This document shows positions 4,394 to 49,872 of a stretch of DNA of 64,000 bases, piece by piece. The notes under the pieces are model-generated. The model saw only the letters and a list, made by a program, of their open reading frames with translations, was not told the DNA's origin and did not search any database. Each line of letters starts with the position of its first letter. Position 1 is the stretch's first letter. Source of the DNA: an uncultured Pseudomonadota bacterium (GTDB taxonomy: Bacteria > Oederibacteriota > Muellerivitia > Muellerivitales > Muellerivitaceae). The position numbers and the translations under genes are program-made. Where the stretch lies: the NCBI GenBank assembly GCA_963836235.1, contig CAWIIP010000005.1, positions 1-64,000 on the forward strand, read 5' to 3'.

Positions 4394-4421
4394 TGCCCAC
4401 GATGGATCCCCTGAGTGGACA
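4394..4421 (+). repeat. 28-bp palindromic site B
   Basis: TGCCCACGATGGA-TC-CCCTGAGTGGACA; same length and centre as the other copies. Confidence 0.75.
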
Positions 4422-34719: not shown

Positions 34720-36114
34720 ATGGTTGGAATTAACTCCAACAAAGGACTCTATACCACATTGAAATCAAGACCTCTTGTCCCCGCGGACAAGCTTAAACCT
34801 TCCCCTCGGCCGCTACCCCAAACCACTCCTTGGTTTCTCTTCGCTTTGGGATTGGCCTTTTTGTTCCGGCTTGGTTTCGGCCTTTGTTCCGAGATCTGGT
34901 TCATCGACCAACAGCAAATTTATTTGATCGGTTTAAAGTATTACACGACCGGCCTCTGGCCCTATTTCGGCCCGGATGTGGCGCCACAAATCCAACTTCC
35001 CGGCGCCCTTCAAGGCCTCGTGGTAGGACTCCCCCTGGCCCTTTGGCCCATTCCCGAAGCGCCTTATCTATTCCTGAACCTTCTTTCCTTCGCGGGGCTC
35101 TGCTCTTTCGCCTGGTACTGCTCCAAACGCCTTCCCCAATTTCCCCAGTGGATCATTTACACCTGGCTCTTAACCGCGCCTTGGGTGATGAATTGGTCAA
35201 CTAACATCGATAATGATTCTTACGTGATTTTCGGGAGCTGTTTCTTTTTTATCGGCTTCCTGGAAACCCTGCCCGCCTTGAGCCTCGATCTTGTTTCCTT
35301 GCCGCTTGCCTGTTTCATGATGGGTTCAGCCCTCTTTTGGAACGCTCAATTCCATATGTCTTACGTGGTGCTGTTTCCTTTCGCCTTGGCGGCCTTGGCC
35401 CTTCGATGGCGGTTAACGCCTTCCCTGAAGATGCTTCCCCTAGGCCTGTCTTTTCTTTTGGGCGGGTTAATAACTGAAAGTTTTGTCATCCCAACTTACC
35501 TAAAGTATGGCTTGGCCCAAGGTTCCGGAGGTGCCTTGAACGCCATTGCCTTCAACCCCGAGAACTTCAAAAGCTTCTTCAATGTTTTAGCCCGGTTTTT
35601 CGCCCTCGCCGCCTGCGAAATTCCCCGCTTTATCGGCGCCAATAACGTGGAACGGTTTCAATTTTTATCGGAAAATCCCTGGATCGCGCCCTTTGCCGGC
35701 ATCGCCGGCATCCTGGGTTTGGCCCAATTGATCGTTTTGATCGTTTCTTTATTCCGGAAAGACCATCCCCAAAAGGATTGGGCGGCGGTGAAGTACTTGG
35801 CCCTGGGCACTTTCTTTTTGATTTATCTTAGTTTCCTCTTCGCCATTAAACCCCCGGCCGCCCATACCTATTACCTGGCCCTGCCGGTCGCCATGCTTTA
35901 TGGCTTTTATGTTTTCAGCCCTTGGGCTTCAAAAAGGTGGTTCCTCAAGGTGGCGGCCATTCTTTTGGCCTGCAACATCCTTTTTCACCTGGGACTCGCC
36001 CTACATAACCTGCCCCTTAAATCCCTCTACAAAAACCGGGATTTGTTCACGAGGGCTATCGCCGAGAAGAACTATCACTTGCTAGGCGAACGGCGGGAAG
36101 GCACGATTTACTAG
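34720..36114 (+). CDS. Polytopic membrane protein, possible GT-C glycosyltransferase
   Basis: More than ten hydrophobic segments; first loop WFIDQ resembles a GT-C loop; start uncertain. Confidence 0.6.
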   Translation: MVGINSNKGLYTTLKSRPLVPADKLKPSPRPLPQTTPWFLFALGLAFLFRLGFGLCSEIWFIDQQQIYLIGLKYYTTGLWPYFGPDVAPQIQLPGALQGLVVGLPLALWPIPEAPYLFLNLLSFAGLCSFAWYCSKRLPQFPQWIIYTWLLTAPWVMNWSTNIDNDSYVIFGSCFFFIGFLETLPALSLDLVSLPLACFMMGSALFWNAQFHMSYVVLFPFALAALALRWRLTPSLKMLPLGLSFLLGGLITESFVIPTYLKYGLAQGSGGALNAIAFNPENFKSFFNVLARFFALAACEIPRFIGANNVERFQFLSENPWIAPFAGIAGILGLAQLIVLIVSLFRKDHPQKDWAAVKYLALGTFFLIYLSFLFAIKPPAAHTYYLALPVAMLYGFYVFSPWASKRWFLKVAAILLACNILFHLGLALHNLPLKSLYKNRDLFTRAIAEKNYHLLGERREGTIY

Positions 36115-36139
36115 AGCCTGTTTGGCTCTCTTATTTTTT

Positions 36140-37960
36140 TTATTTCTCCGAAACAACAGCCGGATTCGGCTTTCTCTTAAACAAGGCGATCCCAAACCGG
36201 TTCGAGGTATAGGGAAAACTTCCAAAAACTTGGAGCAGGTCGTAATTTTTGAGGATGTAACCCATGATGTCCGCCCCGTAATCCTTTCCAAAAGAAGAAA
36301 AGCCTTGTTCGGTCGTGTCCCTTTGTAGAACCGCGACATAGGTAACCCGATAACGGTCCAATTGGTCCATTACGCGGGCCGAGGTGCCTTCAGGCGTCAA
36401 ATCCACCGGGTTATAGATGTAATCCGTCAGGGGATTAGTCCGGTCGGACAAGAAATTAAAACCTATGCCCTCGGGAAAAACGGCCAGGGTTTCATCGGAA
36501 AGCGTGTTCTGCTCGAGATATTCGAGGAATCGCTGGGAACTGAAATAGGGCTCGGTGGGAAAAAAGAATAAACTGCCCCGGGAGGATTTGACCTCCAAGG
36601 TGCTTTTACTGTACCAGTTCAAGGAGACTTTCACGCTTGCCAGAATGAAAAGAAGGCTCAGGAATATAAAGCCTCCTTTTACGAAAAGCCTGACGCTCTT
36701 TTCCGGAAAAAACGAGGGGATCATCCGCAAAAAGAAAAGGTAATAGACGATCAAACCCGGAACGATCAGGGTAAAACCAAAATGGCCTTCCCACACCCGG
36801 AAAAAAATACGAAGAAGCATCAAAAAAGAAAACAACGAAAGGGCCAGCACCAGGGATTCCCGCTCAACCTCTTGGCCCCGGTATAAGTTGCGGGCCGCTT
36901 GCAACCCCACCACCAGGCAAAGCAACGGCAAACAGCGGAACTGCGCTTGATAGCCGAAAAAAGAAATGAATAAGTAATAAGCGAAGCCTAGGGTGAGAAG
37001 GGCCGCCAAAAGGGTGAGAAAGCGCGCTTTAAATAAGGTGAATGAATTTTGGATGGACGAAGCGATGAACCCGCCCCCGGCAAACAAAAGGGCGAATAGC
37101 GTGTATAAAGAGCCGCTTATAAACCAAACCCGCAGGTTATCGCCGACATCATTCAAACCGGATAGGTTTTGCTCGAATGTTCCCCGGCTCGAAATGCGAT
37201 CGACAAAGGCCTTCCCGATTCCCGTCTCCCCCCAAAAAAGGGTTCCATAAAAAATAAAAAAGACGAGGATGGCGGTTCCCGCCGAAATCAAGGCAAGGGT
37301 CAAAGCCAGGCGGATCTTAGGCTTGCCACGGGATTTGTCCGCCATAAACTCCACCAGCGCCGGCAGGAAGAGCGCGGCCAATGCCATCAGGCCAACTTCA
37401 GGACGGGTCAGCAACGCCGAGCAAAGGAAGAAAACGGATAATATTCCCTGAACTTTCCCGGTCTTGTTTTCATTTCTTTTAAAAAAGAAAATCCCCAAAA
37501 GAGCGAAAGCCAAGCCATAGGTAACAGCGTAGGTGTAAGGGATGATGAAGTTGTAATTGCAAGGAGACACGTAATAACCAAAGGCGCAAACCGAGATAAA
37601 GGTAACAACTACCAGAACCGCCAAAAGCGGCCCCAAGACGGCCTTCGCCAATTTGTGCAGGGCGTAAACCGTCAGGAGGAGGGACAGGATTCCGCTGGCC
37701 ACCAAGCTTCCAATTTGAATCCCGCCGATCCTAAAAAAGAGGGCATTCAGATAAGGAACCAAGGGGCCGTATAGCCAAACTAGGTCCCGGTAGAGCATTT
37801 TCCCCGAAAGCAATTGGGCCGGAAAGTACCACTCTTTGCCGGTATCGACGATCAAGTCCCCCCATTTCATCCAGGAAAGTTGAAGGAAGACGGCGATCAA
37901 AAGGCCATAAAGTAAAAAAGGTGCGGAATCCAAAAAGCGCCGCTTGATGCCTTCATTCAT
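36140..37960 (-). CDS. Polytopic membrane protein, probable GT-C (ArnT/PMT-like) glycosyltransferase
   Basis: DTGKE..P..L..G..LYRD...YGP N-terminal loop, many TM helices and a soluble C-terminal domain. Confidence 0.7.
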   Translation of the reverse strand: MNEGIKRRFLDSAPFLLYGLLIAVFLQLSWMKWGDLIVDTGKEWYFPAQLLSGKMLYRDLVWLYGPLVPYLNALFFRIGGIQIGSLVASGILSLLLTVYALHKLAKAVLGPLLAVLVVVTFISVCAFGYYVSPCNYNFIIPYTYAVTYGLAFALLGIFFFKRNENKTGKVQGILSVFFLCSALLTRPEVGLMALAALFLPALVEFMADKSRGKPKIRLALTLALISAGTAILVFFIFYGTLFWGETGIGKAFVDRISSRGTFEQNLSGLNDVGDNLRVWFISGSLYTLFALLFAGGGFIASSIQNSFTLFKARFLTLLAALLTLGFAYYLFISFFGYQAQFRCLPLLCLVVGLQAARNLYRGQEVERESLVLALSLFSFLMLLRIFFRVWEGHFGFTLIVPGLIVYYLFFLRMIPSFFPEKSVRLFVKGGFIFLSLLFILASVKVSLNWYSKSTLEVKSSRGSLFFFPTEPYFSSQRFLEYLEQNTLSDETLAVFPEGIGFNFLSDRTNPLTDYIYNPVDLTPEGTSARVMDQLDRYRVTYVAVLQRDTTEQGFSSFGKDYGADIMGYILKNYDLLQVFGSFPYTSNRFGIALFKRKPNPAVVSEK

Positions 37961-37962
37961 GC

Positions 37963-37990
37963 CGTGATGAATCCCTCCAAGTGGTGGACA
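37963..37990 (+). repeat. Possible degenerate half-copy of the 28-bp site (site C)
   Basis: ...CCC-TC-CAAGTGGTGGACA; right arm matches consensus at 10/13; sits at the left edge of the second island. Confidence 0.4.
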
Positions 37991-38179
37991 GCCCAGACTA
38001 TTGTAGCCATTTCAAATGCGGGGCCGGGAAGGAAAGGGAGCAGATGCGGCCGTGGCGGGTCATACATTCCAGGTCCGGAATAGGGGAAGCCTCTTTCGTC
38101 GCCAAGGGAAAATCACGAGTCGGGCCTGAACCCACTCAAAATGGATAATAGAAGCCAGCTTTTCAAGAACCAATTGATA

Positions 38180-38953
38180 TCAATTTTGATTGATTTTTGA
38201 ATACGTAAAATTGAATACGTGGTGTTCATCACCAGCTTCTATTGTAATCGTTAATTTACCGGGGGTTTCTGTAATGGTCGGTAATTTAATTTTTACAATC
38301 CCGCCATACCAAGATTTCGGAAATATCGTTTCTTTTTTTAATACCGTTGACGATAAATCATGCATGTTCGTTTGATCCTCATCTACAATTCTCGCAAACC
38401 TTGCATCCGAATCCGCTTCGGCTTGATTTCGTGCCGCTTGAGCTTCAGCGTAGTTATATGTTGAACTTGAATAACTACCATAACCACTCGTACCGTATGT
38501 ATAAGTACCGTAAGTTTTTGAGTAACCCGCATTTTGTGCTTGAATCGAATCAGAAACGCCTTGAACTGCCGCGGACACAGTCTCCCAAGTTTCTCGATCC
38601 TTTTCTTCCTTAACCAAATCCTCATAGCTAAATATTTTCAGCGGTATTTCTCCACTTGATTCCGAATCTGTGGATTTTGCAGAAATGTTATCTGTAGAAA
38701 ATACAAAATCTCGGCGCAAACCATTTTTTACTTCGATTAAAAAATCACCCCTTTGCTCACTGGAAAACTTGTCTTCTAAAGGCGTAACAATGACTATATT
38801 TTTTTTTAGGGATATAAGCGATTTCTTTCCATCCTTAAATATTGCCTTTTGATTCTCGATCGGAGTAGCCGTTATTAATCCGTAGGTAGCGCATCCGAAT
38901 TCTAAAAAGGTAAATGGTAATAAGAGAAGCCAAAATAAATTCCTCATATTCAT
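38180..38953 (-). CDS. Hypothetical lipoprotein (AT-rich)
   Basis: Signal peptide ending LEFGC; Tyr/Gly/Ser-rich central segment. Confidence 0.75.
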   Translation of the reverse strand: MNMRNLFWLLLLPFTFLEFGCATYGLITATPIENQKAIFKDGKKSLISLKKNIVIVTPLEDKFSSEQRGDFLIEVKNGLRRDFVFSTDNISAKSTDSESSGEIPLKIFSYEDLVKEEKDRETWETVSAAVQGVSDSIQAQNAGYSKTYGTYTYGTSGYGSYSSSTYNYAEAQAARNQAEADSDARFARIVDEDQTNMHDLSSTVLKKETIFPKSWYGGIVKIKLPTITETPGKLTITIEAGDEHHVFNFTYSKINQN

Positions 38954-39093
38954 TTAATTTTCTCCTAACATGAATAATAACGCTATTTCTCGAACCATTT
39001 TACAATAACTGGGTTTAAAAAGTTCCTGCCTCCATTCTCCACTTCAAAAACCCCATCCCAAAAGTAGCCACTCAGCGACATTTTACGAATCCT

Positions 39094-39418
39094 TCATTTG
39101 CCAACCCGGTAAGCCCTTCGACGTTGCTCAGGGTAGATCGCCCGGGGTTCTTCCAAAAAACCGATTCGTTTCTTGAGTTTCTCGGGCGCCTTCATCAGTT
39201 CGCGGATGGCGCCAAGGGACGACCCAAAGGGTCGCCACTTGTCCTACGCCTTCGCTCAGGCCAAGTGCACGGCTAGTTCCCGGCTGAAGCCGGGAACATA
39301 GACTAGCCGGTCGAACACGGCTTGAAATTGGGCGTCGTGGGAACCGACCTTCTTTTCTAAAGCTTCCAGTTTCCGGGCCAAGTCTTTATGTATGGTCAGA
39401 GCCTCCCGAAAAAAAAAT
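39094..39418 (-). pseudogene. Remnant of the C-terminus of an ORF6N-type DNA-binding protein, split by insertions
   Basis: HKDLARKLEALEKKVGSHDAQFQAVFD | 99-bp insert | AIRELMKAPEKLKKRIGF; N-terminal domain missing. Confidence 0.7.
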
Positions 39419-39554
39419 GGGGCCAGGCCACCATTAACCATTTTGCGATGAATCCCTTCCCAATAATGCCCCACCGCCCCATAGCTTACCCCATTCTTTC
39501 TCCGATCTCCTTCAAGCTCAAGCCCGATTCTTAAACCCAATGCCGATGGGCCCC

Positions 39555-41420
39555 TTAAAACCCAAATATTCCCTTCACCTTATCGGTAGCCGATTTGGCG
39601 TCGCCCGCCGTGCTGACCACGCTTTGATATTCCTTCACGCCATCCCCAAGGGCTTTGAGCGGGTCCTCAGCCTTCGACACCCCATTCCCCGTGTCACTCG
39701 ACGTTACTTTATTTGGATTAGCTGATGAGACACCTTTGCCTGAGTGAGGAGTTGAAACCCCTTGATTCGTCGCAGCCACCCCTTGGCCGCTATCGCGACC
39801 AAGGGCGATAGAACCCATCGAAGCTTGCCCCACGGCTTGAGCCGAAACGGCTTCAGCCGGTTCCCCTTTGGAACCGGCACTGCCTTGGCTTTGGCCTCGG
39901 CTAGCGGCCTCGTCCAAGGTGGTTTGGACACTCGCTCCCCCTGCGCTCATGTGGCTTTGGGGGACAGGCTGGGCAACTTGTGGTTGGCCGCCAGCGGGGA
40001 CGGATGCCCTCACGCTACGACTGCGCAGGTAATCCGTTGCCAGGTGGAAGAGGGACACATACAAATGGGGGCTCAACAGGAAGATCACCACCAAGGCCAC
40101 CAGGGCGGTAACGATCCAGCGTCGAACGAGATGAACCAAGGCCCGTTTGAGCTCGATGAGCAGGAAGGATTTTATCTTCGGCCACCACCCCTGAGCCGAG
40201 CCCGATTGTGTGGCTCCGGTACCGTCGCCACTCCGGCTCGGCACAACCAGGGCTTGTCCTCCACCTAGTGGGGTGGAGGACAGGTGGGCGGAGGCCACCA
40301 GCCGAGGCCCTTGCTTTGGGTGTGCCGGTTTCATAGAGGAACCGGCCCCCCGGATCGAGGCCCCAGCAGGCCCGGGTGTTTTGGATGGAGCAGGAGCTTT
40401 AGCGACGACCGAAACCTTTTCGGTAGCCGTTTTAGGCTGGACAGGCCGGCCTTCCGTTGGCTGAACCGGCGCAAAACCCTTGGCGGTGTAATCCTCCGGC
40501 TGTTTGCCCTGTTTGATCCAGGCCACGAACCCCTTCACGTCCGCCTCGGTCATGGCCTTGTCGCAGGCGATCTGAAGGGCCCGATAGAATAAATCCTGGG
40601 TTTCGGGTGGAGCGAGTTGGATGGTCCCGATAGGGGCCTCCCCCGGCTCCACAGCCGAGGCCTTTTTCTTTGGGCCCGGCTTGAGGCCCGTACCCGGGCC
40701 CAAAGCGGTCAGGCGGAACAGGGCTGTCTCGGAAATACCCCAAATTCCCTTATTATAATTATTCGGAATCCGAATAATTAAGGCCCTGGCTTCGGGGTTG
40801 ATAAGGGGTAATAGGCGGATGGCCCAATTCACTGACTCCAAACTCATGTCCAACTTGACCGCAACCAGGTCTTGGTTCAGGCTCGGATTGGCCCGGATGA
40901 GGTTCTCGACATCCTGGTAACCGGCCCACCAGCCCTTATCCCGTACCCGGTTGTCCGTCCGGCCGATGATGACCGCCTCTTCCTCAGTTGGGTTCTGGAT
41001 ACCCGCCGGAATAGTGGGCCTTTGAAGCCGCCGGAAGGCCTGGTACCGGGATTGGCCGCTCATGAGCCGATAAATGAAATCCGCCACCCTCCATGGTCGT
41101 CCCACCTGGGCCGAAGCCTCAAGCTGAGGTCCACTCTTTGGTTGTGCCAGTTCCAAAGGGGAACTGGCAAGAGCTAACCGGGGATTTTCCGGGTGCAGGG
41201 TCACCCCCGGGGCCAGGGGGCCGGTGGGCTCGGGCCGAAGCTTGACAGGGTTCTTAAGGCCGACGGCCTCGATATTGGCGGCCAGGTCGGCAATCTCCTC
41301 GTCGGAAGCGGCGGGGCCAGGATTGTCCGGGTTCAGGCGGATGTTGGCCAGGGGGACTTCCTGGGTGCCGGGAAAGAGTTCGGGCAAAAGGGCGAGAACG
41401 TCTTCAATGGATACGGGCAT
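39555..41420 (-). CDS. ParB N-terminal-like domain + HTH + transmembrane segment + low-complexity tail
   Basis: IRLNPDNP, LAANIEAVGLKNPV and LMSGQSRYQAF motifs; HTH-like LNQDLVAVKLDMSLESVNWAIRLL; TM WIVTALVALVVIFLLS; GGAGG before ATG 41420. Confidence 0.8.
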   Translation of the reverse strand: MPVSIEDVLALLPELFPGTQEVPLANIRLNPDNPGPAASDEEIADLAANIEAVGLKNPVKLRPEPTGPLAPGVTLHPENPRLALASSPLELAQPKSGPQLEASAQVGRPWRVADFIYRLMSGQSRYQAFRRLQRPTIPAGIQNPTEEEAVIIGRTDNRVRDKGWWAGYQDVENLIRANPSLNQDLVAVKLDMSLESVNWAIRLLPLINPEARALIIRIPNNYNKGIWGISETALFRLTALGPGTGLKPGPKKKASAVEPGEAPIGTIQLAPPETQDLFYRALQIACDKAMTEADVKGFVAWIKQGKQPEDYTAKGFAPVQPTEGRPVQPKTATEKVSVVAKAPAPSKTPGPAGASIRGAGSSMKPAHPKQGPRLVASAHLSSTPLGGGQALVVPSRSGDGTGATQSGSAQGWWPKIKSFLLIELKRALVHLVRRWIVTALVALVVIFLLSPHLYVSLFHLATDYLRSRSVRASVPAGGQPQVAQPVPQSHMSAGGASVQTTLDEAASRGQSQGSAGSKGEPAEAVSAQAVGQASMGSIALGRDSGQGVAATNQGVSTPHSGKGVSSANPNKVTSSDTGNGVSKAEDPLKALGDGVKEYQSVVSTAGDAKSATDKVKGIFGF

Positions 41421-41636
41421 ACTGACCTCCACATAAGGGTTAACCAGCCTATGGGAGGAAGCCTACCGAATATTTTTTGGATTTCCAGAAGTTTCAGCGG
41501 CGGGAGACTTAAAATGCCTTTTCTCGGTCAGCTTTTAGGCAAAATTGAGACGATCAAAGGCCCTATAAGGCATATTATTATTTTATTATTTGGTCGCCTT
41601 TCAAAATACTTGTCCAACGTGGTCACAGTTTTGGTT

Positions 41637-42605
41637 CTACTTTTGATTCCCGATTTCGGTGTCAACTCCAGACACTTTTACAACCGCCCGCCAAAGGGCG
41701 TCCTGATTCGCGCGGTCATGGAGATGTTCATGGCGCATGATCTCAATGGGACCCGTCATCTTTTTTGGAGGCGAGCAAAAAAACTTGCCAGAAACATCGA
41801 CGCCAAACTTCGAGGCCGTGAGATATCTTTTGGCCCCTTCATCGACGGAATGTGACATTCCAGGAATAAGTTTCGAAATCCGCACAAATACGTTCTTCAT
41901 AAGAAAACCTAGATTGCGAGGCGCCAGGGTATCCGGAGCCGCTCCGGGTGAAACGGCGTATACGGCCATGTCCGCGGGTAGCTTTCGAGCAAGGGCCGCG
42001 GCCCACCACGCGACAAATATTTTAGCGTCAGAGTAAGCCGTGCTAGCCTTGTATTTTACATTCGGGGAGCTGCGCAAAATCGCTTCTATGGCTGAAACCC
42101 GGTCGCCTTTGTACTCTTTCGCGGCAAACGCCGCCAAGTCGGTAAATTGAAACAGGGGCACATCACCTCGCGCGGGTTCCGCGCCGGCAATAACGATACG
42201 AGCGTCCGGCGCCAGAAGTCCGGCCCCTAAAAGTCCCATCGTTAACTGGTGATGGCCGATCAACGGCGCTTGCGAAGCCTCAATGTTCTCGCTTGTCACA
42301 ACACGTTCTTTGCCTGGCATCATGCCAGCGTTAAGAAGGAGAAAATCTATGGGTTCGCCTCCCTCTCCCTTAACTAGCTCGGCGACCGCCTTCTTCACGC
42401 TTGCAAACGAATCTAGGTCGAGAGCAAGACCAACGATATTTTTAGTTCCGGCATCGGTCCTTAACCTGCTAACGGCTTCATCCACTTTGGCCTGGCTACG
42501 TCCAGTGACTATAACCTGGCTCCAACCATCCTCGGCCAGTTGCTTAGCTGCCGAGTAGCCTAAGCCAGACGTAGCGCCAGTAACGAGTGCGACAGACTTT
42601 TTCAT
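41637..42605 (-). CDS. SDR-family NAD(P)-dependent oxidoreductase
   Basis: TGATSGLG, LNAG and YSDAK (YxxxK) motifs. Confidence 0.9.
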   Translation of the reverse strand: MKKSVALVTGATSGLGYSAAKQLAEDGWSQVIVTGRSQAKVDEAVSRLRTDAGTKNIVGLALDLDSFASVKKAVAELVKGEGGEPIDFLLLNAGMMPGKERVVTSENIEASQAPLIGHHQLTMGLLGAGLLAPDARIVIAGAEPARGDVPLFQFTDLAAFAAKEYKGDRVSAIEAILRSSPNVKYKASTAYSDAKIFVAWWAAALARKLPADMAVYAVSPGAAPDTLAPRNLGFLMKNVFVRISKLIPGMSHSVDEGAKRYLTASKFGVDVSGKFFCSPPKKMTGPIEIMRHEHLHDRANQDALWRAVVKVSGVDTEIGNQK

Positions 42606-42650
42606 AGTTTGTCTCCTAGTCTAAAATTGTGGAAATTTCATCAATCACTA

Positions 42651-42713
42651 TCTGTAGTACACGCTACAGAGAATCCCAACCGCCGTCAAGCGATATTGTT
42701 GCGGTTGCTACAA
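42651..42713. promoter_or_regulatory. Two candidate TetR operators in the divergent promoter region
   Basis: TCTGTAG-TACACG-CTACAGA (42651-42670) and TTGTTG-CGGTTG-CTACAA (42696-42713). Confidence 0.65.
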
Positions 42714-42752
42714 ATAGATTGTCCGAAGTGTTTCGTATGAGTAAAATGAGGA

Positions 42753-43340
42753 ATGGCTCGAAAAATAGAATTTCATTACGATAACGCGGTGGATCAGGCG
42801 ATGCGGGTCTTTTGGGGTAAGGGATACTCTGGCGCGTCGTTAAAAGACCTTCTCAAGGCGATGAAAATTGGGGAAGGCTCCTTCTACAATACCGTCAAAA
42901 GCAAAAAGCAGCTCTATATTGAATGCTTGAATCGATATGGAGAGGTCGAAGCCAAAAAAAGACATTTGGCCTTAACATCAGCCCCGAATGCGCGTCTCGG
43001 GATGCGGGCTTTGCTAGGCGCTATGTTCGATTGTCTCGATGATCCGAAAAATCCTTCGTATCTTTGCATGTTCGCGGCAATGATTTCTGAAGATGTCATG
43101 GCTGATAAGGAATTAAAGAAAACTGCTGTTGCCACCGTTACTCACGCACAAAAGGTAATTGAAGATAAGCTTGATGAAGACAAGAAAGCGGGGCGTCTTC
43201 CTAAAAACTATGACTCACATACAGTTGCCGCTGTCATAGCTACTTACTGTCAGGGTATATGGCGTATGGCCATGATTTCATACAAACGGGAACAGTTCGA
43301 GCGCGAATCGGAAGCCTTTCTTCGAGGATTGGGTCTTTAG
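42753..43340 (+). CDS. TetR/AcrR family transcriptional regulator
   Basis: MAR..EF....A...AM.VFW.KGY...S..DL...M.I..GSFY...SK N-terminus; divergent from the SDR gene. Confidence 0.92.
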   Translation: MARKIEFHYDNAVDQAMRVFWGKGYSGASLKDLLKAMKIGEGSFYNTVKSKKQLYIECLNRYGEVEAKKRHLALTSAPNARLGMRALLGAMFDCLDDPKNPSYLCMFAAMISEDVMADKELKKTAVATVTHAQKVIEDKLDEDKKAGRLPKNYDSHTVAAVIATYCQGIWRMAMISYKREQFERESEAFLRGLGL

Positions 43341-43438
43341 GTTTAGAATTCCGAATCACACTGATACTCCAACTTCCAAGTCAGCGACACTTCGTCCGAA
43401 GTGAAACAAGAAAATTAGTACTAAAATATATTTTTTCT

Positions 43439-43466
43439 TGTCCACAAAGGGTCCCCGTCGTGGACA
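43439..43466 (+). repeat. 28-bp palindromic site D
   Basis: TGTCCACAAAGGG-TC-CCCGTCGTGGACA. Confidence 0.9.
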
Positions 43467-43484
43467 AACGCGAATCCTATTTAC

Positions 43485-44456
43485 TCAAGGTTTCTCGGGC
43501 GACCACTTGTATAACTTCAAGACTTTCCTGCCGCTGATCGTAACTGGTTCGCCTGTGTAAAACTCCCCAGTCTTTAAATTCGGGACTTGATAGTCCATAT
43601 GATCGAAGTAAGTTAATAAATTGAAATTTCTGTCGTAAATATAAAGCCGCCTTTTAGTGAAATCCTGCTCGCTTCCATCCGGGTACTTCTGGTTTTCGGT
43701 TTGAGTGGAATATTGGGCATAGACATTGCCAAAATCGTCGATAGCGAGAATTTCATTAAAACCGTAATGGTCCCCAGGGTGTTTATTATCCCCGTACCAG
43801 TGCGGCAAAAATATTGTTTTTCCCCCGACCTTGACCTGGTAACGCCCGTTAAACCCATGCTCACCCGTATAAGCCGAAGCAAAGATCTTCGACTTGATCT
43901 TGCCGGAGTCATATCCGTTGATCACGAACAGAATTCTTCCATCCTGCCAGGAATAAAAGACGCCGTTGGATAGGGAGTAATAACCCGGCCAAAGGCTACT
44001 CCCTTTGTCGTTCCATCCGGTTTGAACGAGTCCTTTGTCCCTATTCAGGACGTAAATCCGGTCCCCGTCCAAAACAAGAATATTGCCGATTTCATCCACG
44101 AATATTGTATTTATCTTATGAAGACCTTTTTCCGTCCAGCCCGGCGGAGGTTTCCAATCCAACCTCCGTGCCAATTTCCCGGTTTTGTCGTAAATGAGGA
44201 TGGAAGATCCACAAAAGAAATAAAGGTTGTCATTCACATCGAACTGGACCCTGAAATAGGAATTCTGATCAGGACAGGGGACGGTATAGAGGTCGTGCCG
44301 GACGTATTTTTCCTTGATTGGATAATTTTGGGGGGGCTGTTCGTAATAATCCTTGGCCTTCTCACGGAGGTCCTCCTCCATACCCCAGGCTTTGAAGGGG
44401 CAGAGGACGAGGAACACCGCCATCAGTAAGAGAATGTTTTTTATGCCGTACCCCAC
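43485..44456 (-). CDS. Secreted hypothetical protein, possibly beta-propeller-like
   Basis: Signal peptide; repeated D..GN.Y(V/F) blade-like motifs; GTG start with GGAGG. Confidence 0.7.
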   Translation of the reverse strand: MGYGIKNILLLMAVFLVLCPFKAWGMEEDLREKAKDYYEQPPQNYPIKEKYVRHDLYTVPCPDQNSYFRVQFDVNDNLYFFCGSSILIYDKTGKLARRLDWKPPPGWTEKGLHKINTIFVDEIGNILVLDGDRIYVLNRDKGLVQTGWNDKGSSLWPGYYSLSNGVFYSWQDGRILFVINGYDSGKIKSKIFASAYTGEHGFNGRYQVKVGGKTIFLPHWYGDNKHPGDHYGFNEILAIDDFGNVYAQYSTQTENQKYPDGSEQDFTKRRLYIYDRNFNLLTYFDHMDYQVPNLKTGEFYTGEPVTISGRKVLKLYKWSPEKP

Positions 44457-44478
44457 ATTACCCTCCCCGTCGTGGACA
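44451..44478 (+). repeat. Half-copy of the 28-bp site (site E)
   Basis: CCCCACATTACCC-TC-CCCGTCGTGGACA; centre and right arm perfect, left arm unrelated. Confidence 0.85.
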
Positions 44479-44551
44479 GGTCGTTTCAGGCTTTGGTAGC
44501 CAGCTTTATAAATTCATCATTTATAATGTTTATTAAACCTTGCCCATCCGG

Positions 44552-45493
44552 TCAACGGACTGCGGGTTGTCCCGTCTTTGAGTAAGCCAGCCTACCGCCG
44601 GCCTTGGCTACTTTGACCAAGGCCTTCCATTCCTCTTTCTCCTGGGCCGAACCAGCCTTTCTGAAACCCGCCTCCAACAGTTGCTTGACGAAAGTTCGGT
44701 AGAGGCCCTCGTTGGCTTCGCTCTCGTCCACCCAACCGCCCTTCCCAAAGGAGAAAACCCAGTACCAATCCACCCCCGGCGCAACCTCCTGCGGGATGAC
44801 CAGTACCTGCCCCCGGCCGTTGTCCGTGTCCTCCGGAATCAATCCCCGGGTAAGGATTTGGCGTTGGCTTAGGAAGTCCACGTCATGCACTTCCACTGCC
44901 CGGTAAGTCAACGTCCCCTCTTTTTCACCGTTATCCTGGTCGATGAACCTGAAATGGTTCTCGTCCAGGGTTACCACGCCAGTGAAAGTGACCCCTTCTC
45001 TGCCTTTTTCGTTTCCGAAATACCAGGCCCTCACAGGGTGGGCCTGGGTATCAATGAGATAAAGGTCGTCCAGGCTGCGCACTATGGTGAACCTTTGATT
45101 CCCAGCCGTAATGGGGTCAACCTCCAGGTTCACAGCGCAGTCTTTGCATCTTGTCTCTGAATAGATATCGGCCCCGGCCTGCACTTCGCTGACCGCCCCG
45201 GCACGCTCATGCCACACCAAACTGATTTGGATATACAACCCAAGTTCCTTCAACCGCGCCACCGCGGGGTCCCAATCCTTTTCGTCCGGGGATTGGGCTT
45301 GCTTCAACAGGGCCGGGATGTTGTTGCTTTGGGATATTCTCAAAGGGGTCATTTTCTGGCCTATTTCCGGTTTCATTTCCAGGAAGCCGCTGGACAGGCT
45401 TCCATCCGGGTTTAAAATCTGGCCACCCCAAGCCGCCGGACCCGCGACAGCAAAAACCAAAACAATCATCAGCGGATTTTTTATTTTCATCAT
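44552..45493 (-). CDS. Secreted hypothetical protein
   Basis: Signal peptide MMKIKNPLMIVLVFAVAGPAAWG from ATG 45493 (ORF track start 45592). Confidence 0.7.
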   Translation of the reverse strand: MMKIKNPLMIVLVFAVAGPAAWGGQILNPDGSLSSGFLEMKPEIGQKMTPLRISQSNNIPALLKQAQSPDEKDWDPAVARLKELGLYIQISLVWHERAGAVSEVQAGADIYSETRCKDCAVNLEVDPITAGNQRFTIVRSLDDLYLIDTQAHPVRAWYFGNEKGREGVTFTGVVTLDENHFRFIDQDNGEKEGTLTYRAVEVHDVDFLSQRQILTRGLIPEDTDNGRGQVLVIPQEVAPGVDWYWVFSFGKGGWVDESEANEGLYRTFVKQLLEAGFRKAGSAQEKEEWKALVKVAKAGGRLAYSKTGQPAVR

Positions 45494-45563
45494 TTCCCCC
45501 CCATCACGGAATAAAAGCTTCACCCTGAGCAACCAATCATAGCCCAAAGTACTAAGCGGGAAG

Positions 45564-45591
45564 AGAGTCGAAGTAGTCCCCGTCCTAGACA
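45564..45591 (+). repeat. Half-copy of the 28-bp site (site H)
   Basis: AGAGTCGAAGTAG-TC-CCCGTCCTAGACA; right arm 11/13. Confidence 0.7.
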
Positions 45592-45600
45592 ACCCTCACA

Positions 45601-46578
45601 TTATTTTTGGATCAAGCCGACATTGGGATGTTCAGCCATTGATCGGGCTTTTAATTGGCTCTCCATGGCCGGGCAAAGAAAAAGTAGCACCGCCATGATC
45701 AATAGGACCGGGGTGAGGTAACGGCTCCATCGGGCCGATACCTCATTCTGCCCGAGGATCTCCGTTTCAGTGGGTGGGTCCAACCCTTTTGCCCCGGGCG
45801 CTGGCAACCACCAGCAAGTGAGTCCCCAAGCGGCCAGAGCGGACAAAACCAACCCCGCTACCTTCCAAATATTGGAGGGCGCAAAAAACGAAGAATGAAC
45901 CGAAGCCGTCGAGGAGATCACGTCTATACCCAAATGCATCACCATGAATCCCCACAAAACGTTCCCTCCCCTCTCAAAGAGAAAGGCGGCGGGAAACGCA
46001 AGGACAAAGGACGTAAACATGGGGACCAAGATCGGTCTCAGATAAAAAGGGCCTGCTCCCGGAACATATCGACCGATATGGTAAGCCGACCACAGCAGGC
46101 CAGACAGGATGGACGCCCCAAAAAAGGACCGCCCAGACCTCAAAAATTGAAAAAGAAATCCCCGGAAGAAAGATTCCTCAAAAAGCCCCGCCATAAAGAC
46201 AAATTTAATCAAAGCGATAGTGGGGACTTGTCGGAAAGAAACAAGACCGGTTTTAGGCGCAATGAAGAAATCGCAAAAGAATATGGGAACCAGGGAAAGA
46301 AATCCTATGGCCAATTGCCTCAAAAGAGGTTTTTTAAAACCGAGGCACCCAAGTGTTTTGGACCAGGAAATGGATTTAAGGCTCTTGGTGAATAAGACGG
46401 TCAGGCCCATCAGGACAATGGCCGTAAGGATATTATGAATTTCCCAGAATGGCTCGTTCCCGGGGCCGAAAGGAATGAAAAACAAGTCCGCTGTTATGGC
46501 CAAAGGCAGCATGATGACCAATATGATGACCGACCAAAACAGAAGGGCCCAACGGAAGCGCCAATAAGACGGTTTCAT
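45601..46578 (-). CDS. CPBP (CAAX/Abi-family) intramembrane metalloprotease
   Basis: EESFFRG, WSAYH and MHLGID motifs; multiple TM helices. Confidence 0.88.
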   Translation of the reverse strand: MKPSYWRFRWALLFWSVIILVIMLPLAITADLFFIPFGPGNEPFWEIHNILTAIVLMGLTVLFTKSLKSISWSKTLGCLGFKKPLLRQLAIGFLSLVPIFFCDFFIAPKTGLVSFRQVPTIALIKFVFMAGLFEESFFRGFLFQFLRSGRSFFGASILSGLLWSAYHIGRYVPGAGPFYLRPILVPMFTSFVLAFPAAFLFERGGNVLWGFMVMHLGIDVISSTASVHSSFFAPSNIWKVAGLVLSALAAWGLTCWWLPAPGAKGLDPPTETEILGQNEVSARWSRYLTPVLLIMAVLLFLCPAMESQLKARSMAEHPNVGLIQK

Positions 46579-46633
46579 GAAATGGACGCCCCCTTTATAA
46601 GCAACTTCATATCCATTGCCTCATCATATTACC

Positions 46634-46661
46634 CGTCCACGACGGGTCCCCGTCGTGGACA
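46634..46661 (+). repeat. 28-bp palindromic site F (best copy)
   Basis: CGTCCACGACGGG-TC-CCCGTCGTGGACA; perfect 12-bp arms. Confidence 0.92.
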
Positions 46662-46676
46662 GATGAAATATTTTTT

Positions 46677-47414
46677 TCAAAGAATCCCGCTAAAACAATC
46701 CAAGATCGAGGCCTTGATGGGCATGAAGTACGCGTTTCCATCTACGGCAGTGATACGGCTCAAAACCGTCTCAGCAAATTCCCGGTTCCAGTCTAGTGTT
46801 GGCCTAAAATTCTCAGGAAACACAACTTTGTTTCGAGTCTCCCAATAATTTTTTGAACCGAGGCTTAAAACCGGTGAAACACCCCAAAAGACCTCATACG
46901 ATTTAAGTAACTCGGAATAAATGTCAAAGAGACGAATATCGAAAAAAGGTTGCGTGAAAAAACCATCGGCGCCGGCATCACGTTTGGCATGGGCATATTC
47001 GAGTTCTTTGTGAATCCCTTGGCGGTAAGGATCAAAGGCGGCATAAATCTTAATTCCGGGGATTTCCCGTTTGAATTTTTTGATAACTTCCAACACATCG
47101 GATGGGTACATTTTTCTGGACATGTCTTGGGGAATGTCACCGCTGATAACAATGATTTCTTTAAAATGATTCTCTTTCAGAAAAACGGCCATTGGCAAGG
47201 GTTCCTTCAAGTTAATATCAACGGCCCGAAAATGCGGTATCGCGTTTTGAAAATAGGGTTTCACATATCCGCATGCCACCCAGCTTCTTAAATCAAATCT
47301 CAATAAATCCGGAATGTTTATCGCGTTTACCTTCTTCAGGTTTTTTGAGATTTTTTCCACTTCTTCCAAAATGGATTCTTTACTTCGGGGAACCAATTCC
47401 AATGAAATTCTCAT
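46677..47414 (-). CDS. Short methylenetetrahydrofolate reductase (MetF-like)
   Basis: SLELVP, INIPD, PHFRAVD, SGD and KRDAGADGFFTQPFFD motifs. Confidence 0.82.
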   Translation of the reverse strand: MRISLELVPRSKESILEEVEKISKNLKKVNAINIPDLLRFDLRSWVACGYVKPYFQNAIPHFRAVDINLKEPLPMAVFLKENHFKEIIVISGDIPQDMSRKMYPSDVLEVIKKFKREIPGIKIYAAFDPYRQGIHKELEYAHAKRDAGADGFFTQPFFDIRLFDIYSELLKSYEVFWGVSPVLSLGSKNYWETRNKVVFPENFRPTLDWNREFAETVLSRITAVDGNAYFMPIKASILDCFSGIL

Positions 47415-47476
47415 AGTGTTTAACACCTGTTCCTAATGATTAAGCATCAACGCTTCATTTTCTGACGGCCCACCTT

Positions 47477-47504
47477 TGTCCACGACGGGCCCCCATCGTG
47501 GACA
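47477..47504 (+). repeat. 28-bp palindromic site G
   Basis: TGTCCACGACGGG-CC-CCCATCGTGGACA. Confidence 0.9.
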
Positions 47505-47587
47505 AGAGCCAACTCACCTTGACATTGACTAAGATAGTGAATTTATGAACCTGAAACCATTTTGAAATGGGGGGAAATCTCCGCTTT

Positions 47588-48796
47588 TTACGGCGAAACC
47601 CTCGAGGTCAACTTTCCCCCGTCGCCGTTGATATCCGGAACGACGGCGTCCAACAGGGAAACCTCGATATTGCCGATCACGATGGCGCTTTTAATCAGGA
47701 CCGGGATGTGCCGGTCATCGGCGGTGATCCAAAGGTCGATATCTTCCTTGTTCCGGAAAAGAGTCCCATACTTGATAAAAGGCTTGGCGTGTAAACAATC
47801 GAAAGTACCCGCGGGGCTCTTGATTTTTTCCCGGCCCACGATTTTTATGATCAGCTTGTAGTTTTTCCCACTCGAGGAAGTCGGAATAAGGTATTTCTTC
47901 CCCACTTCCATTGGAAAGAGACGGAAATAATAAAAACAGGAAATGACGTCCTGGGTGTAAGGCTGGATATCCATTTCCTCGATGGCATCCTGGTTATGCT
48001 GATGAACCAGTCGATGCTTGATCTGGTCATAGGATTCCCGGTTGCGGGCCTTGTAATCCCCCTCTTGGACGTCGTTCTGAAATTTCCAGGTGAGGTAATC
48101 CACCGAGTCGAAGTAGCTGGTTTGCACGTCGTTCACGGGATAAAAGGTGCTGAAAGGAAAAGCGGTCTTGGCTTTCGCCACCAAGGTATAGCAGGGCCGG
48201 TTGTCCACTTTCACGAAGTTTTCCACGGACAAAGTGGCGTAGCCCGCCAAGACCCCAATGGCCCGGACCTCGTAGGTCAGCCTTTCACCCTGGGCGAAAG
48301 CCTTGTTGGCCTTTGGCCGGGGAACCTTCTGAACATCCTTCTCGTCTTCGGACGAATCCGCTTCCGAAAAGGCCTGGGAAGGCTTGCTGAGAGCGACGGG
48401 AGTCGCCGACTTGGAAAGTTTTTGCAGGTAAGCCTGTCTTTTTTGGTCCAACTCCCCCTTATCGGGATAGTTGAGGGGATTGATGATTCTCAAAACCCGC
48501 CCCAGCTTAAGGGGTTTGCGGGGGTTCAAATGGTTTTGCCGGGCCAGCTTCCCCTTGGCGGATTCGGTTCCATAATAGGCCTCGGCGATAAATTCCAAGC
48601 TGTCGCCATTCTGCGCTTGATAGTGAAGAACTACCGTCCGGTCCATTTGCTTTTCTTGGGACTTCGCGTAAGGGGCCGCCGCGGGCTGCATGGAGGCGAT
48701 ACTGGTTTTACCCTGGGCCACGAACAGCAAGGAACAACCTTGGAGGAAGGGAAAACAGAGGAACAAAAAGACTAAAAAAATATATACCCGTTCCAT
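47588..48796 (-). CDS. LysM-like + DUF3108-like lipoprotein
   Basis: Lipobox LQGC; GDSLEFIAEAYYG LysM-like segment; GERLTY...PAGTFDC...WITADDRHIPV. Confidence 0.8.
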   Translation of the reverse strand: MERVYIFLVFLFLCFPFLQGCSLLFVAQGKTSIASMQPAAAPYAKSQEKQMDRTVVLHYQAQNGDSLEFIAEAYYGTESAKGKLARQNHLNPRKPLKLGRVLRIINPLNYPDKGELDQKRQAYLQKLSKSATPVALSKPSQAFSEADSSEDEKDVQKVPRPKANKAFAQGERLTYEVRAIGVLAGYATLSVENFVKVDNRPCYTLVAKAKTAFPFSTFYPVNDVQTSYFDSVDYLTWKFQNDVQEGDYKARNRESYDQIKHRLVHQHNQDAIEEMDIQPYTQDVISCFYYFRLFPMEVGKKYLIPTSSSGKNYKLIIKIVGREKIKSPAGTFDCLHAKPFIKYGTLFRNKEDIDLWITADDRHIPVLIKSAIVIGNIEVSLLDAVVPDINGDGGKLTSRVSP

Positions 48797-48822
48797 TCTT
48801 AAAAATCGGGAGATTTGAAGGT

Positions 48823-49872
48823 TCACTTCGGTTTGGATTCTTTTTTGATGTATTTTTCCATAGCTTCCAAAACCTCTTCCACCTTGATGGCGTCCATGGG
48901 GTCGTGAATCCCGCAAACACCCAATTGGCAATCAGGGCATTGGAGATTGCGGGGCATGAGGACCGTCGAGGTGTTTCCCCAGGGGCCCCATCTCACGGGT
49001 GTGGTGGCGTGGATCGGGCAAAAAAGGGCGACGGTAGGGGTCTTCACGGCCGCGGCGAGGTGCATGGTCCCGGTGGAACCCGAAAGGAAACATTCCGCCC
49101 TCTCATAAACCGCCGCCAACTGACGAAGGCTGCACTCCCCGATCAACAGCACGGGTTTTTGTTCCTGGCTAAGGCCCCGGACATGGGTCATCACCTCGGC
49201 AATAAGCGGGGTTTCGTCGGGACCGCCGGTAATGACGACCTTTCGACCCCGATAGGAAAGCTGGGAAATCGCCTGTCCGTATCGCTCCGGTTTCCAATTA
49301 AGGGCCGAGCCCTTGTGTCCGGGATGAACCACCACGTAACGCGCCCCATAAGCGATGCCTTTTTCCTTGAGCAGGTCATTGGCGAAAGACCTTTCGTTAT
49401 CGGAAAGGGGAAATGTAATTTTTTCCGCCCCGGGCGTTACCCCCAAGGGCCGCGTCAAGTCCAGGTTATATTCCACCTCGTGCCGGTCGCAGACGGAACG
49501 ATGGATATGCGTCTTTCGGTTCAGGAAAAAACTGTACCAGCGGTAGGCGGTTCCAATCCGGATGGGTATTCCCGCCATCCAGGCCGCGATGACCTGTTGA
49601 GGCCTGGGATAAAGGGTGATGAAAACATCCGGGGCCAGCGTTTTAAACCGGCTCGCCAATTTCCATAGGCTCTCTTCGGGATCCAATAATTCCACCGCGT
49701 TCACCGCTGGATGGTTTTGAACGATCTCCTTGGCATAGGAGCTGACCAATGCCGTGAGCCGGGCCTGGGGAAAGGCCGCCTTGAGCGTTTGGAACACAGG
49801 CAGGGACAAAAGAAGGTCACCGACCTTGTCGGTTCGGGCAACGAGAATATGTTTCGGGTTGATTTCGCTCAT
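48823..49872 (-). CDS. Glycosyltransferase family 9 protein
   Basis: RTDKVGDLLL, HPG, STGTMHLAAA and RWGPWG motifs. Confidence 0.9.
   Translation of the reverse strand: MSEINPKHILVARTDKVGDLLLSLPVFQTLKAAFPQARLTALVSSYAKEIVQNHPAVNAVELLDPEESLWKLASRFKTLAPDVFITLYPRPQQVIAAWMAGIPIRIGTAYRWYSFFLNRKTHIHRSVCDRHEVEYNLDLTRPLGVTPGAEKITFPLSDNERSFANDLLKEKGIAYGARYVVVHPGHKGSALNWKPERYGQAISQLSYRGRKVVITGGPDETPLIAEVMTHVRGLSQEQKPVLLIGECSLRQLAAVYERAECFLSGSTGTMHLAAAVKTPTVALFCPIHATTPVRWGPWGNTSTVLMPRNLQCPDCQLGVCGIHDPMDAIKVEEVLEAMEKYIKKESKPK

Follow-up and report, generated by a model that had tools for sequence, protein, structure and literature searches.

We consider it rather probable that the 28-bp palindrome recurring among accessory genes of an uncultured peat-soil bacterium of candidate division FCPU426 is the crossover site of a gene-cassette system common to one family of this division, with a short serine recombinase acting in trans as its most likely enzyme. 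The bacterium has a genome of 3.97 Mb (G000), and the window, that is, the whole stretch of 64,000 nucleotides that was analysed, lies on its contig C5. A preliminary description of this window had put forward a system of gene cassettes, unlike attC and dif, whose recombinase acts in trans; the proposal is supported by the evidence below, the enzyme itself being what we infer.

The array in the window holds three full copies of the palindrome, one half copy and one relic, all co-oriented and each sitting directly 3' of the stop codon of a minus-strand gene. The preliminary description had counted five copies of one site in the same orientation; the orientation holds for all five, but the copy at 44451 is a half site and that at 45564 a relic, and the single sequence given for the copies at 44451, 45564 and 46634 is right for the last only. 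With up to three mismatches allowed, the chance expectation of the site pattern is 0.00 (100 shuffles). The head site of the array (47477-47504, plus strand; TGTCCACGACGGG-CC-CCCATCGTGGACA) has one arm mismatch and the centre CC, and lies 84 nt past the stop of a core gene with LysM and DUF3108 domains (47588-48931, minus strand), which precedes the array and at which conserved synteny begins. Homology to G001, a genome of the same genus, stops at 47522, adjoining the head site, and one metagenome contig diverges from the window to other DNA at 47474. Cassette 1 carries an MTHFR-like gene of 249 aa (46677-47426, minus strand; PF02219) with nucleotide matches of 79-82% in five other genomes, flanked by sites in G004 and by none in G001, G003, G010 and G014. 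Sixteen nucleotides past its stop stands a perfect palindrome (46634-46661, plus strand), and at 46628/46629 and 46661/46662 contigs of three metagenome runs depart from the window into at least three different continuations. Cassette 2, with a gene for an Rce1/CPBP-type membrane protease of 325 aa (45601-46578, minus strand; PF02517), is followed by the decayed relic (45564-45591, plus strand), which keeps 11 of the 13 bases of the right arm, has lost the left arm and is not reported by nhmmer at E<=10; its placement 10 nt past the stop agrees with the rule that a site follows a stop. Cassette 3 encodes a 346-aa protein (44552-45592, minus strand), with a 77% nucleotide match on a different contig in G005, and cassette 4 a 323-aa protein (43485-44456, minus strand), both without a Pfam family in the Pfam search. 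The half site between them (44451-44478, plus strand; nhmmer E=0.07) retains its centre and right arm intact as TC-CCCGTCGTGGACA, while its left arm is unrecognisable. Earlier statements that the array has one site per intergenic gap, that its genes are MetF-like, a CPBP protease and two unknowns, and that the gaps between core genes hold no copy all agree with these results; in the window's syntenic core regions, too, no copy was found between genes.

At its tail the four-gene array has a full site with two left-arm mismatches (43439-43466, plus strand), where a contig of run X4 has another left arm and flank and is identical to the window from 43449 on. In runs X2 and X3 coverage is confined to about 43556-46679 and in X4 to parts of this, nearly all at 95-100% identity, and therefore cassettes 4, 3 and 2 move together as a single fused unit with the sites at 43439 and 46634 as its borders. 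The tail site is also the right border of a two-gene cassette (41619-43438) with an SDR gene (41637-42605, minus strand) and a TetR gene (42753-43340, plus strand), both assigned by Pfam. At the nucleotide level this cassette is 92% and 89% identical to two other genera, compared with 64-77% in the core flank; the matches in G012 (92%) and G003 (89%) stop exactly at the site 43439-43466, and in G003 two full sites lie on its flanks. At its left border 41619 is a homology border in both G012 and G003 as well as a loose end of a contig, and the segment 41610-41627 (plus strand), as read from the sequence, might be an internally deleted site relic. Outside the range covered by the preliminary description (43439-47504), a second small array in the window consists of a site (1083-1110, plus strand) and a weak site with six mismatches beside an IS66-type element (4394-4421, plus strand; nhmmer E=0.023), and an IS66-type transposase gene belongs to this array.

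Throughout the genome the same arrangement recurs, and a genome-wide scan, as the preliminary description had advised, found the sites clustered in arrays and not dispersed behind core genes. Among 83 site copies (nhmmer, E<=0.1), 77 belong to 15 co-oriented arrays with a spacing of about 840 bp; a neighbour within 5 kb exists for these 77, where 1000 random trials gave 15.3 on average and 34 at most. All 62 adjacent site pairs are direct repeats, and for 69 of the 83 sites a gene stop lies on the expected side and strand, with a median gap of 21 nt between stop and site, so that both the array structure and the rule of gene orientation can be read directly from the genome. The 61 cassettes measured have a median length of 843 bp, and their cargo is heterogeneous and accessory (PIN, BrnT, RHH, SUKH, NHL propellers and glycosidases). 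The sites are also targets of group II introns and of IS110-family elements.

Cassettes are duplicated and exchanged with their borders in the site. The cassette at C2:1195365-1196610 is 100% identical to that at C4:57542-58787 over 1276 bp, the identity ending within both bounding sites and the flanks being unrelated; a second duplicated pair, with 91% identity over 680 nt, is likewise bounded by sites. Contigs of four metagenome runs part from the window sequence exactly at sites and join window cassettes to other partners. In G005 an array of six sites lies between two genes which G000 and G001 have side by side, and the first of these sites is a hybrid with the core gene's end. Cassettes thus vary among relatives with breakpoints inside the site, as had been anticipated, while the anticipated junctions of circular or excised cassettes were not seen among the metagenome contigs compared with the window.

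The anatomy of the site narrows the position of the crossover. It is a near-perfect 13-2-13 palindrome of 28 bp whose arms are the same sequence inverted; the central TC is conserved at 96-98%, and the central eight bases are almost invariant. The layout of serine recombinase crossover sites, with an asymmetric dinucleotide at the centre and an inverted arm of 12-13 bp on either side, is therefore present. In a comparison of 361 distinct sites, 16 groups have only the left flank in common and 22 only the right flank; outside the groups made by group II introns, a left-arm variant is tied to the left flank and a right-arm variant to the right. Since arm variants accompany their own flank, the crossover is bounded to positions 14-17 of 28, an interval of four bases that is based on few informative variants and is equally compatible with a tyrosine recombinase having a 6-bp spacer. 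Strand exchange would take place within this interval at the palindrome centre, around the asymmetric TC/GA pair, which would confer polarity on the site.

The taxonomic range of the site is narrow. The half-site is present in 20 of the 24 family genomes (the four without a site match being G007, G017, G019 and G024) and in the one genome of the sister family, and in none of 15 genomes that belong to other families of this phylum. Of 185,579 species genomes, only FCPU426-type MAGs carry the exact site.

No recombinase gene adjoins the array of the window, in line with the preliminary description, which had seen none in the window, and the search that it recommended elsewhere in the genome led to one beside a site (C2:163827-164663). 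This candidate, of 275-283 aa, has complete resolvase catalytic (PF00239) and 'recombinase' (PF07508) domains and neither zinc ribbon nor coiled coil, the zinc ribbon PF13408 being absent from all 19 close database clusters, each of 275-283 aa; it is a truncated derivative of the large serine recombinases and not a standard member. No functional serine recombinase of such a truncated build is known to us, a limited literature search included. All eight genome copies (five intact, three fragments) have a site about 12-60 nt from the stop and an array beyond, and a site is present in all five informative metagenome contigs with close relatives, against none at 73 loci of ordinary large serine recombinases. 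With a dN/dS of 0.08-0.16 (seven of ten pairs, those with unsaturated dS), the short recombinase is, judged by its sequence, under purifying selection. Among genomes with an intact copy, the half-site matches in the four that are richest in sites number 59, 40, 59 and 73. In a study on a large serine integrase, the recombinase domain is reported to touch 13 bp of the half-site (PMC3783163), which fits the 13-2-13 site. From these data we infer that the short serine recombinase is the most likely enzyme for the 28-bp site. Its distribution is nevertheless patchy: no PF00239 gene was found in G005 (98% complete, 39 half-site matches), G010 (99% complete, 27 matches), G023 (38 matches), G021 (34), G016 (17) or G002 (10), all of them rich in sites. 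G018, with the most sites (95), has the short recombinase only as a fragment without the catalytic domain, together with two resolvase-domain ORFs (open frames of 248 and 270 aa) with no site in the surrounding stretches examined. Only one of the 15 arrays in G000 bears the recombinase gene, and none was seen at nine array tails inspected in G021 and G012.

Because the short recombinase is missing from several site-rich draft genomes, a tyrosine recombinase stays a live rival; it would serve the same cassette system but read the site as 11-6-11, which we regard as unlikely though far from negligible. The length of 28 bp and the 11-6-11 geometry suit a core-type tyrosine site, and near-invariant central eight bases are expected if spacer identity is required. 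One candidate is a single-copy Xer-like protein of 353 aa (G000:C1:328834-329895), whose orthologues, at 56-79% identity, occur in 23 of the 24 genomes of the family and also in the sister family, against 28-35% in other families, a range equal to that of the site; however, the four family genomes without a site match all carry this gene too. The other candidates are six paralogous integrases of about 367 aa, notably a highly conserved one beside tRNA-Ser (C2:1185612-1186715), which has 88-90% identity across six other genera and at least 73% in G005, G021, G023 and G018, all without an intact short serine recombinase, but no orthologue above 62% in G010, G012, G022 and G016, which have 15-27 sites. 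Neither gene was found adjoining a site: the nearest sites in G000 lie 41 kb from the Xer-like gene and 5.4 kb from the tRNA-Ser integrase, and orthologues elsewhere are on other contigs or more than 10 kb from sites. Around the likely terminus, where contig C1 has its skew maximum, no site lies within 78 kb, and therefore the site is not simply the chromosomal dif; as to the host dif, the one palindrome tested near this maximum, of several listed, is not conserved in 40 relatives.

The site differs, as had been claimed, from the XerCD dif consensus, with no resemblance to the dif core then compared. The sites that bound dif modules alternate in inverted orientation and occur mainly on plasmids, whereas the sites here are chromosomal direct repeats (62/62 adjacent pairs), with two similar arms in place of distinct XerC and XerD arms. 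Nevertheless, the present system and the XerC/XerD pdif modules of Acinetobacter plasmids (for example PMC6449649 and PMC13141974) both have 28-bp sites bounding small accessory-gene modules, shuffling between replicons, a host recombinase in trans and insertion sequences that target the sites.

It is improbable that the palindrome is instead a REP-like, protein-binding or RNA-stabilising element, with exchange by homologous recombination between short repeats and no dedicated recombinase. A short GC-rich palindrome directly past stop codons is like many REP elements, G000 has three Y1/RAYT-like transposase genes, and exchange between 28-bp repeats would likewise keep an arm variant with its own flank. 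However, the distance of the three Y1 genes to the nearest site is 10-100 kb, and no site flanks them; the copies are not dispersed but form co-oriented arrays with one site per gene (77/83 in arrays); arrays begin at hybrid pseudo-sites in otherwise site-free conserved operons, which homologous exchange cannot make; and the close linkage of a recombinase gene to the site is contrary to this reading. An intrinsic terminator of the cassette genes is ruled out, since an A-rich run, not a T-run, comes after the hairpin on the cassette coding strand, while the T-run stands before the hairpin on the opposite strand.

Classical integron arrays (CALIN-type) with unusually short attC and an integrase missed by the assemblies are very improbable, for although the arrays recall sedentary chromosomal integrons in their architecture, in their wealth of toxin-antitoxin genes and as targets of group II introns and IS110-family elements, none of 31 family genomes exceeds the curated cut-off of the IntI profile TIGR02249 (best 84.5 bits against 265), the site lacks separate R and L boxes, an unpaired spacer, extrahelical bases and a GTTRRRY core, and the crossover is at the symmetry centre and not at one end.

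The system is not an integron, and the earlier claim that the site is unlike attC is borne out by the lack of attC architecture and by the central crossover. The integron trait of co-oriented cassettes, one site each and variable between strains, is found here all the same. Integrons, above all the sedentary chromosomal ones, and CALINs (Cury et al. 2016, PMC4889954) likewise have co-oriented cassettes, most of them with one gene and each closed by a recombination site; many of their arrays lack a recombinase gene, their sites are homogeneous within a lineage, their cargo is rich in toxin-antitoxin and unknown genes, and group II introns and IS110-family elements parasitise the sites. Unlike integrons, the present system has no IntI, and its site is a 28-bp palindrome of double-strand type with central crossover in place of a folded attC of at least about 57 bp. 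The candidate recombinase is of the serine type and lies at its array's distal end, converging on the cassette genes, whereas that of integrons diverges from the first cassette; the enzyme probably differs in kind from the integron's.

Among serine recombinase systems, the composite islands of SCC/SCCmec are large elements with their own full-length Ccr recombinases, which have a zinc ribbon and a coiled coil, and with one chromosomal site. They share with the present system a serine recombinase that has both a catalytic and a recombinase domain, tandem units between short direct repeats and integration directly past the end of a gene. Here, in contrast, each unit is a single gene, a genome has its sites spread over about 15 arrays, and the candidate enzyme is without the domains that set directionality. 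The small serine recombinases act at res site I or hix, where a dimer binds inverted arms of 12-13 bp around an asymmetric 2-bp centre, a binding that is predicted here. Each of them acts on one fixed segment, which is resolved or inverted, and needs accessory sites or enhancers; we know of none that builds cassette arrays.

In the preferred reading a cassette would consist of one or a few genes and one site, and putative circular cassettes would be taken up at any site already present or at a look-alike sequence, while excision would use recombination between two directly repeated sites. Such a cycle of integration and excision would lead to co-oriented arrays behind unrelated genes, and decay of a site inside an array would fuse neighbouring cassettes, as may have happened in the three-gene block of the window. 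Tentatively, we suggest as a quite possible reading a 'serine integron', in which a large serine recombinase, minus its zinc ribbon and coiled coil and hence its control of directionality, would have given rise, independently of integrons, to freely moving single-gene cassettes at a minimal double-stranded site. If this is true, the 'serine integron' would be a gene-capture platform whose arrays are seeded throughout the chromosomes of an entire bacterial family.

The preliminary description had placed five copies of a 28-bp palindromic site between 43439 and 47504, together with four unrelated minus-strand genes. The window corresponds to C5:1-64000 of a genome, G000, that measures 3.97 Mb in 5 contigs at about 50% G+C. 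A pattern search of 43200-47800, with a shuffled expectation of 0.00 full sites, retains three of these copies as full sites, namely 43439-43466, 46634-46661 and 47477-47504, whereas the one at 44451 amounts to a half site and that at 45564 to a relic. The four genes stand as described: a Pfam scan finds an MTHFR-like protein (46677-47426), an Rce1/CPBP protein (45601-46578), and two products without a Pfam family (44552-45592 and 43485-44456). The MTHFR-like gene is a cassette with flanking sites in the source genome G000 and in the related genome G004, and it occurs without flanking sites, at about 80% identity, in four other relatives, G001 (C7:66885-67640), G003 (C4:431456-432191), G010 and G014; it may be a core gene taken up as a cassette, or these copies may be cassettes that lost their sites.

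The genome-wide scan shows that the site is clustered. In G000 a fuzzy search gave 69 site copies, and 83 loci came up at E<=0.1 with an nhmmer model built on the site; 77 of them have a neighbour within 5 kb, against 15.3 on average and never more than 34 in 1000 random trials. The sites form 15 arrays of 2-14 sites and 6 singletons, and all 62 adjacent pairs are co-oriented. The site itself is polar: one of its strands reads TC at the centre, conservation is much stronger in the arm 3' of TC than in the 5' arm, and on that strand a T-rich stretch lies 5-8 nt ahead of the site. Cassette genes are encoded opposite the TC-reading strand, with the stop codon on the expected side at 69 of 83 loci, a median of 21 nt from stop to site, and the next start 30-90 nt further on. 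Intervals between sites have a median of 843 bp (n=61), and 65 of 79 ORFs show the expected orientation. Their products are heterogeneous, with 82 Pfam families in 66 ORFs, among them PIN and BrnT toxins, RHH antitoxins, SUKH immunity proteins, NHL propellers and glycosidases. On all contigs of G000 site orientation tracks the GC-skew slope, the two switching together, thus cassette genes lie on the leading strand throughout, and recombination between arrays of the two replichores would yield inversions symmetric about the origin-terminus axis. The gene directly 5' of each array is a different ordinary one each time (ATP synthase gamma, GH44, GH116, a pyruvate-ferredoxin-oxidoreductase-type protein, transposases and others), and no recombinase is linked to the array heads of G000.

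That cassettes move as units is seen both within the genome and between relatives. The cassette C2:1195365-1196610, carrying a 377-aa ORF, equals C4:57542-58787 at 100% over 1276 bp, and the identity stops in the bounding sites, beyond which the flanks are unrelated; C2:1196610-1197271 and C5:251284-251944, 91% identical over 680 nt, are bounded by sites likewise. Identity of the core flank beside the window's array (LysM/DUF3108, GT9) is 77% with the same-genus G001 and 64-71% with other genera, and homology to relatives stops at 47522, beside the head site. Since the conserved flanks enclose 7.3 kb of unrelated DNA in G001 and are almost adjacent in G003 and G012, window positions 36114-47522 constitute a variable island of 11.4 kb. 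Within it, the SDR-TetR block 41619-43467 reaches 92% identity in G012 and 89% in G003, far above the core identity, and ends exactly at a site; in G003 it is flanked by two full sites. In a further relative, G005, an array of six sites separates two genes that are neighbours in G000 and G001, and the first site of this array is a hybrid of the core-gene end and a site arm. The strain comparison proposed earlier therefore gives a positive answer: cassettes differ among relatives, and their borders fall in the site.

Metagenome data were examined by mapping Logan contigs of four runs to window 41000-49500. The points at which contigs depart from the window are 43432/43449, 46628/46629, 46661/46662 (with three or more different continuations) and 47474. 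Two runs (X2, X3) cover only about 43556-46679 and a third (X4) only parts of that stretch, which indicates that the genes at 43485-44456, 44552-45592 and 45601-46578, whose internal sites are decayed, travel as one fused block. The contigs of the four runs show loose ends at sites and no deletion or circle junctions across 41000-49500; such contigs cannot show rare forms, so the absence of joints is no argument against excision. The position of the crossover follows from a flank comparison of 361 distinct sites from G000 and the fetched loci, where 16 groups share the left flank only and 22 the right flank only. Except in groups made by group II introns, variants of the left arm up to position 13 travel with the left flank, and those of the right arm from position 18 onward with the right one. 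As arm variants keep their own flank, the crossover maps to positions 14-17, the palindrome centre, with few informative variants at positions 12-13 and 18. Taken as a whole, we hold with high confidence that a real gene-cassette mechanism operates at the 28-bp site.

Scanned as an 18-nt half-site with at most one mismatch (reversed-pattern control, 0-1), the site was found in 20 of the 24 family genomes, with 2-95 copies each, once in the one sister-family genome examined, and in none of 15 genomes from eight other families of the phylum. The exact 27-nt pattern was found in 96 stretches of a 185,579-species collection, nearly all of them titled FCPU426 and the remainder under vague or other labels. 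No exact site was found in IMG/VR viral contigs, hence no phage carrier was found.

As to the enzyme, the recombinases encoded in G000 comprise eight of the tyrosine type, namely six paralogues (about 367 aa), an Xer-like protein (353 aa) and a protein of 425 aa, and two of the serine type, a large one of 515 aa and a short one of 278 aa. The short protein (C2:163827-164663) has complete Resolvase and Recombinase domains and nothing further; its predicted catalytic serine belongs to an RVSS motif. The search for a recombinase beside the site, suggested in the preliminary description, leads to this gene: its stop lies 35 nt before a site, at the distal terminus of array C2:164711-168022, and the cassette genes converge on it. 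The same arrangement is kept in all eight genome copies, intact in G000, G001, G090, G093 and G022 and fragmentary in G018, G085 and locus L058; a site also follows the gene in 5 of 5 informative JGI contigs with close relatives, and is absent at all 73 loci with ordinary relatives (<=61% identity). Homology between copies of different genera is confined to the gene itself, and dN/dS is 0.08-0.16 in the 7 of 10 pairs with unsaturated dS. In a 5.8-billion-protein collection the 19 closest clusters share 74-100% identity, are all 275-283 aa long and lack a zinc-ribbon domain; beyond them identity is <=61%, and the proteins are ordinary large serine recombinases. For a large serine integrase, contacts of the recombinase domain are described over 13 bp of each half-site, with the outer 9 bp read by the zinc ribbon (PMC3783163); on that account an enzyme without zinc ribbon should need about 26-28 bp, which is the conserved length here. 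In the site beside the gene, the gene-proximal arm is lineage-specific: contig L175 has the lineage variant on both arms, G000 and contig L174 a variant/consensus hybrid. Judged from these few cases, this would be the pattern expected after recombination between two site types.

Against this stands the distribution of the gene. No PF00239 gene was found in G005, G010, G021, G023, G016 and G002, genomes with 10-39 half-site matches, and G018, with 95, has only the recombinase fragment without catalytic domain and two ORFs with a resolvase domain, and the fetched surroundings of these two ORFs contain no site. Nine array tails examined in G021 and G012 carry no recombinase. Repeats of this kind are often missing from draft MAGs, most metagenome contigs with the gene measure 1-3 kb, and it is present in 4 of 6 assemblies that are contiguous (<=30 contigs) and have 15 or more site matches; nevertheless the gap in site-rich genomes is real. 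We give the short serine recombinase about an even chance of being the enzyme.

A less probable rival reading is that a tyrosine recombinase acts on the site. The Xer-like protein (C1:328834-329895) has the same taxonomic range as the site, yet it is also found in four site-less genomes of the family and never adjoins a site. A phage-type integrase (C2:1185612-1186715), just upstream of tRNA-Ser(tga) at C2:1186752-1186838, has 88-90% protein identity in six other genera, exceeding the Xer-like protein (67-77%) and the window core genes, and is present in several genomes without the serine enzyme, but it is absent from G010, G012, G022 and G016. Five further paralogues of this integrase (57-70% identity) occur in G000. 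Separately, tandem triplets of tyrosine recombinase genes were observed in several family genomes, away from listed sites (G018:C97:110447-112226, G023:C34:5828-7397, G012:C8:198743-200321, G091:C134 and G015:C1).

Other readings were rejected. In several genomes arrays are bordered by ParB_N-like proteins (590-780 aa; in G000 at window 39555-41432, minus strand, C2:1205629-1207404 and C1:368632-370986) that have the ParB_N-like domain at the N-terminus, low-complexity linkers and a segment that by eye seems hydrophobic; these proteins form a sizeable accessory family of paralogues, strongly expanded where sites are numerous, with 15 matches in G000, mostly distant from sites, 21-27 in G016, G021 and G023, and one ParB in most others, and are dismissed as the recombinase. 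Integrons, the classic example of genes being captured through site-specific recombination, have a single integrase family and the folded attC as their defining features. The present system works like integrons and dif modules, yet does not pass as a member of either. IntI is above cut-off in none of 31 family genomes, nor in G000, and the site lacks attC architecture and has a central, not terminal, crossover. Around the skew maximum of C1 (about 145 kb) no site lies within 78 kb, no site-like variant with another spacing was found near the terminus, and a search for palindromes of the form 11-N(6-9)-11 gave, among several palindromes, one dif-like candidate, C1:129201, not conserved in 40 relatives. 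Three Y1/RAYT-like genes of G000 all lie away from the site, which speaks against a RAYT/REP origin, and an intrinsic terminator is dismissed as the coding strand has no T-run after the hairpin.

The arrays are also a target of other elements. Two group II intron families, identified with Rfam and by RT and maturase domains, lie directly beside or inside the palindrome, group-II-D1D4-4 abutting it on either side and D1D4-6 inserted between positions 10 and 11 (G000:C2:1476540-1478500, C1:223025-223052, and loci L038, L039, L042, L054 and L112). IS110-family transposase genes (DEDD_Tnp_IS110 and Transposase_20) recur within arrays in a number of genomes, frequently some 60-100 nt away from a site (L024, L039, L052, L058, L068, L080 and L082). 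Integron attC sites attract both group II introns and IS110-family elements, and because the same kinds of parasite target the 28-bp site, the analogy suggests that it may at times be exposed as a hairpin. In addition, identical 474-aa genes, which appear from their sequence to be IS66-type transposases, lie within arrays at window 2875-4299 (minus strand) and C2:1203253-1204677, in a 1494-bp repeat of 99.9% identity; the window copy adjoins a weak site at 4394-4421.

No description of this cassette system was found in the literature searched on FCPU426, integrons, dif modules and serine integrases. In an uncultured phylum of soil and peat it arrives where integrons do, by means of a simple 28-bp site and what is probably a pared-down serine recombinase; the result is dozens of exchangeable accessory-gene cassettes per genome, common to genera at up to 92% identity. 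A serine recombinase acting on 28 bp without directionality domains would be a compact enzyme-and-site pair for genetics. If confirmed, the system would mean that cassette-based genome plasticity arose more than once, and would explain how toxin-antitoxin, surface and hydrolase genes are traded among these bacteria.
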